NCBI GenBank assembly: GCA_036676985.1
Contig: JAKFBU010000038.1
Coordinates: forward strand, 172,468 to 236,467
DNA length: 64,000 bases
Origin: Candidatus Sericytochromatia bacterium
GTDB taxonomy: Bacteria > Cyanobacteriota > Sericytochromatia > S15B-MN24 > UBA4093
Direction: 5' to 3'
In this document: piece by piece, positions 43,576-46,646 of the stretch
How positions within the stretch are numbered: position 1 is the first letter of the stretch
How the letters are laid out: each line of letters begins with the position of its first letter
Position numbers and translations under genes: made by a program
Notes under the pieces: model-generated
Told to the model about the DNA's origin: nothing
The model's database searches: none
The model's input: the letters and a program-made list of their open reading frames with translations, nothing else

Positions 43576-44466
43576 TTAAGGCTTGCGGGCGAGCGTGATG
43601 CCCGCCCCGAGCAGGAGGGCGCCGCCGGCCCAGGTGCCCCAGGTCGGCACGTGCTGGAAGATGGCCACCCCGAGCACGGCGGCGAAGAGCGGGGTGAAGA
43701 GCGAGACGATGCTGGCCGTGGAGGCCCGAGCGAGCCGGTAGCCGTAGGTCATCAGGACCTGCGCGACGGTCGCCGAGACGGCCACCCCGGCGAGCAACAG
43801 CCACTCGGTGGGCGTGGGGGCGTGGTAGGTCCGAAGCAACCAGGGCAGCGTGAGGACCGAGGCCACCACGGAGAAGTAAAGGACGATGGACCAGGGGCTG
43901 TTGTTGGCCGTGGCGCGCTTGACCGCCACGTAGGCGAAGGCCGCGAAGACGGCCGACCCGAGGCCCGCCACGGCGCCCAGGTTCCAGAAGCCGCCCTTGG
44001 GCCCCACCACCAGCGCCACCCCGCCGATGGCCGCCGCAAGGCAGGCGCCCGTCCGCCAGTTGAGGCGTTCGCCCAGCAAGAAGGCCGCGAAGAGGGCCGT
44101 GAAGAAGGGCGAGGTGTAGTTGAGGAGGACGGCGTCGGCCAGGTAGAGGTGGGCGATCGCATAGAAGTACGCCGTCAGCGCCGCCCAGCCCATCACGCCG
44201 CGCCAGACGAGCAGCCCCTTGTCGTTGGCGGCGAAGCTCATCCGGCGAGCGACCATCCAGCCCGCGATGAGGACCAGCCCGCCGAAGGCCCGGAAGAAAG
44301 TGACCTCCTCGATGGGCAGGGTCTCGCTCGCTACCTTGACGAGGGCCCCCATGACGGCGAAGCAGAGGCTCGAGCCCAGCATGAAGGCGTAGCCATGCCG
44401 TTCCCTGGACGACTGGTCGACAGCCAGCGACGTTGGCGGGTTCGCGGTGGGCGAGAGGTCGGTCAT
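43576..44466 (-). CDS. DMT/EamA family transporter
   Basis: 10 TM segments, TFFR, YTSPFFTALFA...LGE. Confidence 0.88.
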   Translation of the reverse strand: MTDLSPTANPPTSLAVDQSSRERHGYAFMLGSSLCFAVMGALVKVASETLPIEEVTFFRAFGGLVLIAGWMVARRMSFAANDKGLLVWRGVMGWAALTAYFYAIAHLYLADAVLLNYTSPFFTALFAAFLLGERLNWRTGACLAAAIGGVALVVGPKGGFWNLGAVAGLGSAVFAAFAYVAVKRATANNSPWSIVLYFSVVASVLTLPWLLRTYHAPTPTEWLLLAGVAVSATVAQVLMTYGYRLARASTASIVSLFTPLFAAVLGVAIFQHVPTWGTWAGGALLLGAGITLARKP

Positions 44467-44572
44467 GAGACGATCTTAGCATGCCCAGAGGGCCAGGGCG
44501 CCTTTAGCGAGCGAGCATCCGCTCGAAATGCGCTAGAATCATGGGGCCATAGTTGCAGAACGGAGGCTCCCC

Positions 44573-45028
44573 ATGGCGATGGAGAAGAAGGCCTACACCC
44601 CCGAAGCGTTCGAAGAGGAGCGCGAGCGCACCCGGACCTTCGTGGACGGCGTCTGCGCCCGGCTCGGCTGGGAGCGCTTCAAGGAGCCGGACGTGGTCGA
44701 GGCCATCGAGCTCGGGCTCACGCGCAACAACCTCGAGTACGGCTCGCGCTTCTGCCCGTGCTACGCGCCCATGAGCTACTTCAAGGCGGATGGTCGAAAG
44801 AACCCCGCGGCCATCTGTCCGTGTCCCGCGGCCATCCGCATGGACGTCACGGACACCGGCGTCTATGGCCCGTTCGCCACCCGCGAGGAGCTGGAGGACA
44901 AGACGAAGGACTGGCCCTACCACGGCGAGATCGAGTCCCGTGACGACGGCTGGTACATGGTCAGCCCGCACCGCGGCATCGACCACTGAATGATCTTCGT
45001 CAAGCCCGGTACGGGCTGGAACGAATAG
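44573..45028 (+). CDS. Ferredoxin-thioredoxin reductase catalytic-subunit-like protein, probable selenoprotein (TGA 44987-44989 read as Sec)
   Basis: GLTRN..EYG..FCPC and ICPC motifs. Read-through gives GIDH-U-MIFVKPG, matching the FTR C-H-C-M-L-F motif. Hairpin follows the TGA. True stop TAG at 45026-45028. Confidence 0.75.
44996..45025 (+). promoter_or_regulatory. Bacterial SECIS-like stem-loop
   Basis: UUCGU-CA-AGCCCG-GUA-CGGGCU-GGA-ACGAA. The apical loop starts with G, 19 nt after the UGA. Confidence 0.65.
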
Positions 45029-45060
45029 GCGCGGACAGGATTTGCCGGTAGACTGAGGCC

Positions 45061-45714
45061 ATGAAGATTACATCCGCCGCGATCGCGGCCACCGCGGTCC
45101 AGCGATCGCAGTACCCCAAGCCCCCCTTGCCCGCCATCGCCCTGGTGGGGCGTTCCAACGTGGGCAAGTCGTCCCTCATCAACTGTCTGTTGAACCGCAA
45201 GAGCCTGGCGCGTACGAGCTCGACGCCGGGCAAGACGGCGACCATCAACTTCTATCGCGTCAACGAGGCCTTCGACCTGGTGGACCTGCCGGGCTACGGC
45301 TATGCCCAGGTCTCCCGCGAGAAGAAGGGCCAGTGGGCCAAGTTCATCGAGGAGTTCCTGATCCATTACGAGCGCTTGCACGGCGTGATCCAGGTGATCG
45401 ACGTGCGCCATCCGCCCTCGGATCTGGACGTGCAGATGTTCGAATGGCTGCAGGCGGAGGGGATCCCCACCACGGTGGTGGCGACCAAGGCGGACAAGAT
45501 CGGCCGGTCCAAGTGGGAGGCGCACCGCAAGGTCTGTGCCGAGGCCCTGCTGTTGACCGAGGCGCCGCGCGATGCGCTGATCGTGGCCTCGTCGGAGCTC
45601 GGGGAGGCCAAGGATCGGATCTGGACCCGCATCGGGGCCTACCTGGCGGAGAAGCCCCTGCGCATGGAGGTGCCGTCCCTGGTGGGCGACGCGACCGACG
45701 AGGAAGAGGCCTAG
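45061..45714 (+). CDS. engB: Ribosome biogenesis GTP-binding protein YihA/YsxC
   Basis: GRSNVGKSSLIN, STPGKT, DLPGYGYA, TKADK. Confidence 0.95.
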   Translation: MKITSAAIAATAVQRSQYPKPPLPAIALVGRSNVGKSSLINCLLNRKSLARTSSTPGKTATINFYRVNEAFDLVDLPGYGYAQVSREKKGQWAKFIEEFLIHYERLHGVIQVIDVRHPPSDLDVQMFEWLQAEGIPTTVVATKADKIGRSKWEAHRKVCAEALLLTEAPRDALIVASSELGEAKDRIWTRIGAYLAEKPLRMEVPSLVGDATDEEEA

Positions 45715-45715
45715 G

Positions 45716-45907
45716 CTAGGCGGTCGCGCAGAGCTCGGACAGCGGCAGGATGGACTGCCTGTTGTCCACGATCTGGGTGACGCGGACCTGCTCCTTGCCG
45801 ATGAGCGTCACCGCGAGCTTGCAGCTCTCGCAGCAGTACCCGAGCCACTTGTGGACCCGGGTCAGCCGCGACCGGCACTGAGGGCAAATGTAGTTGTTGA
45901 GCAGCAT
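45716..45907 (-). CDS. Small zinc-ribbon protein
   Basis: CPQC...CESC. GGGGAGG RBS. Confidence 0.6.
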   Translation of the reverse strand: MLLNNYICPQCRSRLTRVHKWLGYCCESCKLAVTLIGKEQVRVTQIVDNRQSILPLSELCATA

Positions 45908-46558: not shown

Positions 46559-46640
46559 GGAGGGTAACCGAATGGTGAGGAGGCTGACTCGAAATCAGTT
46601 ACCCCGCAAGGGGCTGTGGGTTCGAATCCCATGCCCTCCG
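46559..46640 (+). tRNA. tRNA-Ser(CGA), CCA not encoded
   Basis: GGAGGG/CCCTCC acceptor, anticodon arm GCTGA-CTCGAAA-TCAGT, long variable arm CCCC-GCAA-GGGG, T arm GTGGG-TTCGAAT-CCCAT, discriminator G. Confidence 0.9.
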
Positions 46641-46646
46641 CTAAAA

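Follow-up and report, generated by a model that had tools for sequence, protein, structure and literature searches.

Does the TGA triplet at positions 44987-44989 of a 64,000-nucleotide stretch of a Candidatus Sericytochromatia genome (hereafter the window, meaning the whole stretch of DNA that was analysed) end a gene, or does it encode selenocysteine (Sec) within a longer one? The gene in question resembles the catalytic subunit of ferredoxin-thioredoxin reductase (FTR) and starts at ATG 44573. A mechanical list of open reading frames (ORFs) closes it at the TGA (44573..44989, 138 amino acids, ending GIDH), where the codons read CGC GGC ATC GAC CAC TGA, that is, Arg-Gly-Ile-Asp-His followed by the TGA. 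Directly downstream the frame continues as ATG ATC TTC GTC AAG CCC GGT ACG GGC TGG AAC GAA TAG, and the sequence thus reads through to a second stop, TAG 45026-45028. When TGA is translated as Sec (U), the product has 151 residues and ends GIDH-U-MIFVKPGTGWNE, with 12 codons of read-through past the TGA. An annotated stop after RGIDH with an in-frame continuation behind it was the starting observation of an earlier, sequence-only reading of this DNA, and both the sequence and the 151-residue translation agree with it.

On the comparative evidence presented here, the TGA very probably encodes Sec. Each of the conditions that the sequence-only reading had named as refuting was checked, and every check favoured that reading. 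The joint reading, in which the gene would specify a 151-residue FTR-like selenoprotein whose UGA is read by means of a hairpin and which would work by an FTR-like redox mechanism, is one that we hold with considerable confidence.

Cysteine and TGA at the same codon

Forty related genomes were searched in six frames (the window's own genome is designated G000), and the gene was found in seven of them in addition to the own genome. Three of the seven carry the TGA form (G001, G006 and G003, with 90%, 69% and 68% identity to the window protein), two read Asp-His-Cys with no stop (G007 and G004, 78% and 73% identity), and the last two, G015 and G023, have the canonical Cys-His-Cys-Phe-Leu-Phe form, also with no stop, at about 40% identity. 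Metagenome contigs add further TGA forms (L038/L039, 85% identity, and L041), one Cys form (L040) and one copy of the Cys-His-Cys (CHC) form. There are therefore six distinct TGA-bearing proteins (G000, G001, G003, G006, L038/L039 and L041) and four close Cys homologues, with TGC in G007, G004 and L040 and a Cys in P0004, for which only the protein is available. Alignments of homologues span the TGA over residues 1-151. Cys also occupies the TGA column in three forms of the CHC clade.

The residues behind this codon are shared by the two close forms. The tail reads GIDH-TGA-MIFV[KR]PG[TS]GWN in the TGA forms and GIDH-Cys-MIFVKAGTGWN in G007 and G004, and the consensus common to TGA and Cys forms is MIFV[KR][PA]G[TS]GWN. 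At the DNA level, conservation runs through the TGA and collapses only past the second stop. The sequence-only reading had placed Sec at the position of the catalytic Cys and had looked to homologues for Cys or TGA at the site and a conserved MIF tail; Cys at the same codon in orthologues, together with the shared tail, bears it out on both counts. The Sec and Cys forms of the close clade are regarded as orthologues because they share a neighbourhood, namely an S9 peptidase, an EamA transporter on the opposite strand, the gene itself, an EngB-like GTPase and a TadA-like deaminase, and this order is present in the Cys genomes G007 and G004.

The possibility that the triplet is an assembly error had also been raised. 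Contigs of four other studies (X5-X8) cover 44987-44989, and among the rows listed none has another letter there; one of these contigs differs from the window at 42 positions elsewhere. The independent assemblies keep the TGA. TGA ends 530 of the 2087 long ORFs in the own genome, and the G003/G006-type version of the gene itself terminates at TGA. As TGA is a normal stop in this genome and in this gene, it follows that there is no genome-wide reassignment of the codon.

Selenocysteine machinery and its co-occurrence with the TGA form

The own genome consists of 79 contigs and is 100% complete by marker genes. It contains a tRNA-Sec (75.2 bits, reported by ARAGORN as SeC(tca)), selA (627 bits), selB (381 bits) and selD (387 bits), the last with an in-frame TGA of its own, so that the whole of the machinery that the sequence-only reading had proposed to look for was found. 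All four genomes with the TGA form carry selA or tRNA-Sec: selA is present in G000, G001 and G003, and in G006, which is 81% complete, tRNA-Sec scored 73.1 bits and selA was not found. In the two Asp-His-Cys genomes, G007 (100% complete) and G004 (96%), selA, selB and tRNA-Sec all fell below cut-off, and none of the three was found in the CHC genome G015.

The Sec trait has a patchy distribution in the class: selA exceeded its cut-off in 23 of the 47 genomes overall and in 0 of the 13 genomes of family f6; genus g4 is without the trait and carries the Cys form of the FTR-like gene. Replacement of Sec by Cys upon loss of the machinery is possible in g4. A gene tree of 12 rows, from which the Sec/Cys column had been masked, did not resolve the three lineages with Asp-His (the DH clade; supports 43/46 and 63/80), and no direction, Sec to Cys or Cys to Sec, is claimed.

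The stem-loop behind the TGA

Bacterial selenocysteine insertion sequence (SECIS) elements are stem-loops just 3' of the UGA, about 16-37 nucleotides (nt) downstream of which the apical loop has a G at or close to its start, and SelB recognises the GU of the loop. The hairpin found here has a lower stem at 44996-45000/45021-45025, an upper stem at 45003-45008/45012-45017 and the loop GUA at 45009-45011. It starts 6 nt past the TGA, and 19 nt separate the TGA from the loop; these coordinates, including the loop that opens on G, match the hairpin as first drawn. Conservation is limited to the upper stem and its triloop and does not extend to the lower stem UUCGU/ACGAA. Folding of the 29-nt core gives -13.2 kcal/mol, a value matched by 1 of 200 shuffles (z -2.84), and a wider 56-nt stretch gave an insignificant z of -1.1. 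As an intrinsic terminator the hairpin was rejected, with 0 terminator-like sites in 44300-45900.

Background rates for such a hairpin were obtained by a scan of the own genome covering all TGAs with at least 50 open codons before and at least 8 after them (n = 22005), the pattern being a hairpin of at least 6 bp, with a loop starting GU, 14-37 nt downstream of the TGA. A hairpin of this kind followed 265 of the 22005 TGAs (1.2%), and a GUN triloop followed 80 (0.36%). A ranking of the 265 by codon-usage score, taken before and after the TGA, put the FTR-like locus first, followed at ranks 2-4 by a cyclase gene, the formate dehydrogenase alpha subunit and a rhodanese. All top four have a GC-rich stem of 6-7 bp and a GUN triloop 19-27 nt past the UGA; in the formate dehydrogenase (fdhA) and rhodanese genes the stems are 6-7 bp and the triloops lie at 19-22 nt, and selD has the same shape at 33 nt. 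The likeness of the four Sec-codon hairpins, those of the FTR-like gene, fdhA, the rhodanese and selD, suggests a simple, lineage-specific SECIS made of a GC stem and a GUN triloop.

The hairpins of Sec and Cys loci were then set side by side. The Sec forms have two versions, AGCCCG-GUA-CGGGCU and CCGGCCCG-GUU-CGGGCUGG, the second folding at -16.5 kcal/mol (z -2.96). The three Cys loci give hairpins of -8.5 to -10.1 kcal/mol (z -0.9 to -1.6), in a different register and without a GU loop. In them CCC (Pro) has become GCY (Ala), which disrupts a central pair (37-47), and Gly is encoded by GGA or GGG in place of GGU, so that the loop loses its U. All Sec loci retain the GGU codon, which supplies the loop GU and accounts for only 8.2% of the glycine codons of the own genome.

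Family, fold and the third motif

The protein matches Pfam PF02943 (FeThRed_B) at 46.8 bits (cut-off 22, E 3.3e-12) over residues 18-92 only; this is the sole Pfam domain found, with no second domain. Among the NCBIfam models only NF041072 ('FtrB family double-selenoprotein') matches, with 38.1 bits where its cut-off is 160. A genome-wide search showed the gene to be the only FeThRed_B gene in the own genome, and the FTR variable subunit, PF02941, was not found in that complete genome, the control Synechococcus genome having matched.

Alignment A2 holds 36 rows, 24 of them canonical family members. The distance from the second CPC motif to the third motif is 52 residues here versus roughly 8-12 in canonical members, and the insert responsible is absent from all 24 canonical rows. 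Other members of the insert-bearing subfamily score 30-40 bits against NF041072. When a subfamily profile was compared with solved structures, FTR catalytic chains (1dj7, 2pvg and others) matched as far as the second CPC motif (E ~2e-5), and hhalign against 21 canonical family members gives 99.6% probability over residues 6-87 only. The sequence matches stop near the second CPC because the insert of ~50 residues separates it from the third motif. Three things place Asp-His-Sec opposite the canonical CHC: the MAFFT alignment, the CHC members within the subfamily and the ranges of the structural superpositions.

In A2 the column of residue 139 holds Cys in nearly all rows, the TGA pairing with the Cys of the Cys forms, and the column of residue 137 holds Asp in nine rows (the entire DH clade), Cys in 26 and a gap in one. 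The DH clade thus has five conserved Cys/Sec positions versus six in canonical members. The first Cys of CHC is a cluster ligand in FTR, and it is this residue that Asp137 would replace. The motif was therefore only in part what it had been called, D-H-U for C-H-C: Sec would stand at the last Cys, and the whole is not simply CHC with Sec. Asp137 is invariant in 9 of 9 full-length DH-clade rows and in the 8 database proteins that end at GIDH. This invariance in the close clade suggests a function for Asp137, the simplest being that of a carboxylate ligand. By homology with FTR, Cys61 of the first CPC motif would be a cluster ligand and Cys63 the exposed redox Cys.

An AlphaFold2 model built on A2 had a mean predicted local distance difference test (pLDDT) score of 95.0 and a predicted template modelling (pTM) score of 0.87. 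Within the insert, DSSP assigns helices at 85-91 and 104-110 and strands at 97-101, 119-123 and 126-130. Superposition by VIA-align placed model residues 13-150 on residues 7-98 of 1dj7_A (Z 10.5, root mean square deviation (rmsd) 1.8 Å, 90 residues), with the C-terminal tail included and ~48 model residues left without a counterpart. For the FTR catalytic chains as a group, Z was 10.1-10.5 and rmsd 1.7-2.4 Å over 90-94 residues; 7pwe and 4tpu followed at Z 9.2 and 8.7, and the next unrelated chain was at Z 2.3. A Foldseek search of the PDB likewise ranked FTR catalytic chains first (prob 1.00, best E 2.9e-3). By its sequence matches and its predicted structure, the protein is homologous to the FTR catalytic subunit and has the predicted fold of that subunit (FTRC).

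Comparison with known systems

As a kind, the Sec-containing FTR homologue is already known since 2008, when Zhang and Gladyshev described FTR catalytic-subunit homologues as a new selenoprotein family on two ocean-metagenome sequences, one of which has Sec at both redox-active Cys positions (PMC2398784). The family is listed with the motif CxU in the reviews PMC9312934 and PMC13188914, in the latter under NF041072 with two Sec. The window protein resembles these homologues (PMC2398784, NF041072) in belonging to COG4802 / PF02943 and in having its putative Sec at the last Cys of the third motif. It differs from NF041072, whose cut-off it does not reach, in having one Sec rather than two (Cys63 is encoded by TGC), and from NF041072 and the CxU type in having Asp, not Cys, two residues before the Sec and in the insert of ~50 residues. 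Unlike the ocean sequences, it comes from a Sericytochromatia lineage of soil and freshwater, as judged from record titles and run labels. The Asp-His-Sec form, the 50-residue insert and an FTRC-type gene in Sericytochromatia were found neither in the text passages of these papers nor in the literature searches made, which returned no paper combining Sericytochromatia with selenocysteine.

With the cyanobacterial and chloroplast FTR catalytic subunit (1dj7, 2pvg, 7bzk) the protein shares the fold, the two CPC motifs and a tail of the form x-H-[C/U]-M-[IL]-F. The six-Cys pattern CPC...CPC...CHC of canonical FTR is replaced by one with Asp-His-Sec 52 residues after the second CPC, and no PF02941 variable subunit, such as the canonical heterodimer has, was found in the own genome. 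The ferredoxin:disulfide reductases (FDR) of anaerobes, namely that of Methanosarcina acetivorans (4tpu) and the glutaredoxin-FDR fusion from Desulfotalea (7pwe), also have an FTRC-like core without a variable subunit (Z 8.7 and 9.2, respectively). In those proteins the motifs are all-Cys and a rubredoxin or glutaredoxin domain is fused to the core, whereas the window protein has FeThRed_B alone, its extra piece being an internal insert. The closest in build are the CHC-type members of the subfamily (G015, G023 and P0011, 36-41% identity, same order), which share the insert and the architecture but keep Cys-His-Cys and have no TGA.

Proposed mechanism and alternative explanations

In the mechanism proposed, the stem-loop at 45003-45017 would recruit SelB carrying Sec-tRNA(Sec), Sec would be inserted at residue 139, and translation would continue for 12 codons to the TAG at 45026. 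The product would adopt an FTRC-like fold with a [4Fe-4S] cluster held, by homology, by Cys61, Cys82 and Cys84, and Asp137, at the position of the fourth Cys ligand of other family members, would serve as a carboxylate ligand to the cluster. Cys63 and Sec139 would form a redox-active selenenylsulfide beside it. Electrons would be delivered singly by a ferredoxin-type donor; upon the first, the selenium of Sec139 would bind a cluster iron and Cys63 would attack the disulfide of the substrate, thioredoxin or another. The chemistry is modelled on FTR. There the redox-active pair comprises the second Cys in the first CPC motif and the Cys that closes CHC (PMC2398784), Cys87-Cys117 in Arabidopsis (bioRxiv paper); once the first electron has arrived, one of the two sulfurs attacks the disulfide of the substrate while its partner binds a cluster iron as fifth ligand (PMC3838966). 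A more specialised version is offered tentatively, as a conjecture that may well fail: an Fe-S disulfide reductase tuned by Asp and Sec, in which a Cys ligand has been lost to Asp, Sec makes an iron-chalcogen bond during turnover or permanently, the 50-residue sub-domain stands in for the variable subunit, and the whole is confined to non-photosynthetic relatives of cyanobacteria.

Several observations weigh against the FTR-like selenoprotein and are collected here. The Asp ligand and the selenenylsulfide, like the electron donor and the substrate, are inferred. The hairpin pattern used in the genome scan was chosen with the locus already known, so that the scan yields background rates and is no blind test. 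A covariation test over nine loci found 0 of 8 pairs changed on both sides, with 4 invariant, and its shuffles were uninformative. Because the 3' arm of the hairpin encodes the conserved Gly-Trp and does not differ in the Cys forms, its conservation is not independent of protein constraint. In an Rfam scan of 44800-45200 (E up to 10) no SECIS family matched, and the three matches obtained were due to chance. The CHC genome G023 has selA, selB and tRNA-Sec, and yet its gene keeps Cys. As for the third motif, it lies outside the hhalign range, which ends at residue 87, so that hhalign does not align Asp-His-Sec with CHC; a weak second HMMER stretch that pairs I-D-H-C-l-i-f with E-C-H-C-M-L-F of the solved chains is insignificant alone, and Foldseek gave no PDB match at E <= 0.001.

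The main alternative at the level of mechanism grants that Sec is inserted and gives it other work, in a protein that would be no FTR-type disulfide reductase. Residue 139, Sec or Cys, would permanently hold the [4Fe-4S] cluster as its fourth ligand and Asp137 would be no ligand, leaving Cys63 a lone thiol in what would be an electron carrier or a redox sensor. The count of five conserved Cys/Sec positions in the DH clade versus the canonical six would fit this arrangement, as would the lack of any hint of a thioredoxin partner among the neighbouring genes, and the homologous Cys of FTR does adjoin the cluster and can bind its iron (PMC3838966). The invariance of Asp137 in the nine full-length rows and the eight GIDH-ending proteins argues, however, that this residue has a role of its own, and His138 and Cys63 are invariant too, as an intact FTR-type active site would need; we consider this arrangement unlikely, if deserving of attention.

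The two explanations that dispense with Sec are far less probable. If the TGA were a genuine stop, the product would be 138 residues long and lack the third motif, and the conserved remainder would be an untranslated RNA element or a short separate ORF. This is the form given by gene callers, with 8 of 9 database homologues ending at GIDH, and an ATG does follow the TGA directly. Against this, the 12 downstream codons match the tail of the Cys orthologues residue for residue, with conservation extending to the second stop; the shorter product would lose a Cys that is near-invariant in the family; and TGA forms are confined to genomes with Sec genes. A genuine stop is accordingly very improbable. 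Slighter still is the chance that near-cognate decoding or an altered code puts an ordinary residue (Trp, Cys or Gly) at the TGA, or that the triplet arose by a recent nonsense mutation or through an assembly error. Nothing specific speaks for this, a generic alternative for any in-frame TGA, and it sits poorly with TGA as the normal stop of the own genome's long ORFs and of related genes of the family, with the retention of TGA in lineages 67-68% identical and in the contigs of four other studies, and with the alternative residue in relatives, which is always Cys.

Distribution and significance

The subfamily occurs in 8 of the 47 genomes of the class, and among 151 sampled genomes of the phylum it occurs in the same 8 only, which belong to two families of one order. 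A search of 1.84 billion representative proteins gave full-length matches at E < 1e-30 to just two clusters, the GIDH-truncated form of the close clade and the CHC form; all other matches are N-terminal only. Related records are titled Candidatus Sericytochromatia (L029, L031), 'Cyanobacteria bacterium' (L032) and 'bacterium' (L030), and the sequencing runs that contain the stretch are labelled as soil and groundwater metagenomes; RNA runs contained 4-11% of the words sampled. The record with the closest copy, L028, which has 90% identity and shares the synteny, bears the title 'Stenomitos sp.'; Stenomitos is a genus of cyanobacteria, and the label may be a binning or naming issue.

A 2022 survey identified neither FTRC nor the variable subunit FTRV in non-photosynthetic relatives of cyanobacteria (PMC9025218). 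By contrast, an FTRC-type protein, probably with Sec, is now placed in Sericytochromatia. Truncation by standard pipelines, as had been foreseen, is the rule in public protein sets, where 8 of the 9 homologues end at GIDH, one of the GIDH-ending homologues being named 'ferredoxin-thioredoxin reductase catalytic subunit' at source. Because the gene is cut at GIDH, the active-site residue is missing wherever the public sequence is used, and the Sec assignment would correct a systematic mis-annotation. The natural trio of Cys-His-Cys, Asp-His-Cys and Asp-His-Sec forms could reveal the effects of changing a ligand from Cys to Asp and a redox partner from Cys to Sec. The shape of GC stem and GUN triloop may be used to find further selenoproteins, and has already flagged a cyclase candidate.

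Features of the locus and its neighbours

The coordinates of the features are collected in Table 1. The EngB-like GTPase gene is probably co-transcribed with the FTR-like gene, because there is no terminator in the intervening 32 nt.

Table 1. Positions of features at the FTR-like locus, numbered along the window
Feature	Position	Strand	Remarks
Shine-Dalgarno-like GGAGG	44562..44566	+	6 nt upstream of start codon; read off the sequence
Full coding sequence of the putative FTR-catalytic-subunit-like selenoprotein	44573..45028	+	151 residues, Sec as residue 139; from the ORF list and translation with TGA as U
First CPC motif, Cys61-Pro-Cys63	44753..44761	+	Invariant in the 36 rows of alignment A2
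Second CPC motif, Cys82-Pro-Cys84	44816..44824	+	Putative cluster ligands by homology; hhalign match to canonical FeThRed_B stops here
Subfamily-specific insert, ~50 residues (85-134), between second CPC and third motif	44825..44974	+	Predicted small alpha/beta sub-domain
Third motif, Asp137-His138-Sec139 (GAC CAC TGA), in place of Cys-His-Cys	44981..44989	+	Sequence and alignment
Tail after the putative Sec, MIFVKPGTGWNE, 12 codons	44990..45025	+	Conserved in TGA and Cys forms; also contains the SECIS hairpin
Conserved upper stem-loop of the putative bacterial SECIS, AGCCCG-GUA-CGGGCU, with flanking pair C45001-G45019	45003..45017	+	
Whole hairpin as drawn in the sequence-only reading	44996..45025	+	Conservation in the second Sec lineage does not extend to the lower stem
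Downstream GTPase gene (MMR_HSR1, EngB/YihA-like)	45061..45714	+	32 nt past the TAG; syntenic in Sec and Cys forms

The neighbouring genes encode an EamA transporter, a DUF3108-like protein, an S9 peptidase, the EngB-like GTPase and a TadA-like deaminase, and this neighbourhood gives no functional clue and no hint of a thioredoxin partner. On the metagenome contig L039, where the TGA-bearing gene (1501-1953, 85% identical) lies without EamA, EngB or TadA matches and has a glycosyltransferase-9-like ORF downstream, the neighbourhood differs, and the gene therefore appears to have moved or the region to have been rearranged in that lineage. Downstream of the TadA-like deaminase gene, the window carries a tRNA-Ser(CGA) at 46559-46641 (+); tried as a tRNA-Sec, it scored 35.2 bits with the tRNA-Sec model, below cut-off, and is an ordinary tRNA.

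Further candidate selenoproteins

Three further Sec genes with in-frame TGAs were seen in the own genome alongside the FTR-like gene. The formate dehydrogenase alpha gene (L043; G000:C27, TGA 48025) matches TIGR01591 at 839.6 bits, with its TGA in the motif Cys-Ala-Arg-Thr-U-His. The rhodanese gene (L044; G000:C7 53246-53881, minus strand) has the motif Cys-Thr-Sec when so translated, and its best NCBIfam match is NF041203, 'rhodanese-related (seleno)protein', at 82 bits versus a cut-off of 115. The in-frame TGA of selD lies in L018 (G000:C26:280471-281394, minus strand).

The cyclase gene (L045/L046; G000:C78:22482-24386, plus strand) encodes 635 residues with SRPBCC/Polyketide_cyc2, DUF5939 and Guanylate_cyc (adenylate/guanylate cyclase) domains. 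Its TGA, at C78:23412, is followed by a hairpin of 7 bp with a GUG triloop 27 nt downstream. TGA is also found in the same-genus genome G001, and Cys is found in 6 of 6 others examined (G002, G004, G005, G007, G008 and G018). The 635-residue cyclase is put forward as a candidate selenoprotein family; the terms 'cyclase' and 'DUF5939' are absent from the main text of the 2026 selenoproteome review PMC13188914, and no paper in the literature searched mentions DUF5939.

Two database proteins of the canonical FeThRed_B type, P0056 and P0057, end at Lys-Tyr-Cys-His where their relatives continue with Cys-Leu-Leu-Phe. Both have the appearance of additional Sec forms, of the CxU type already published, that gene callers have shortened.

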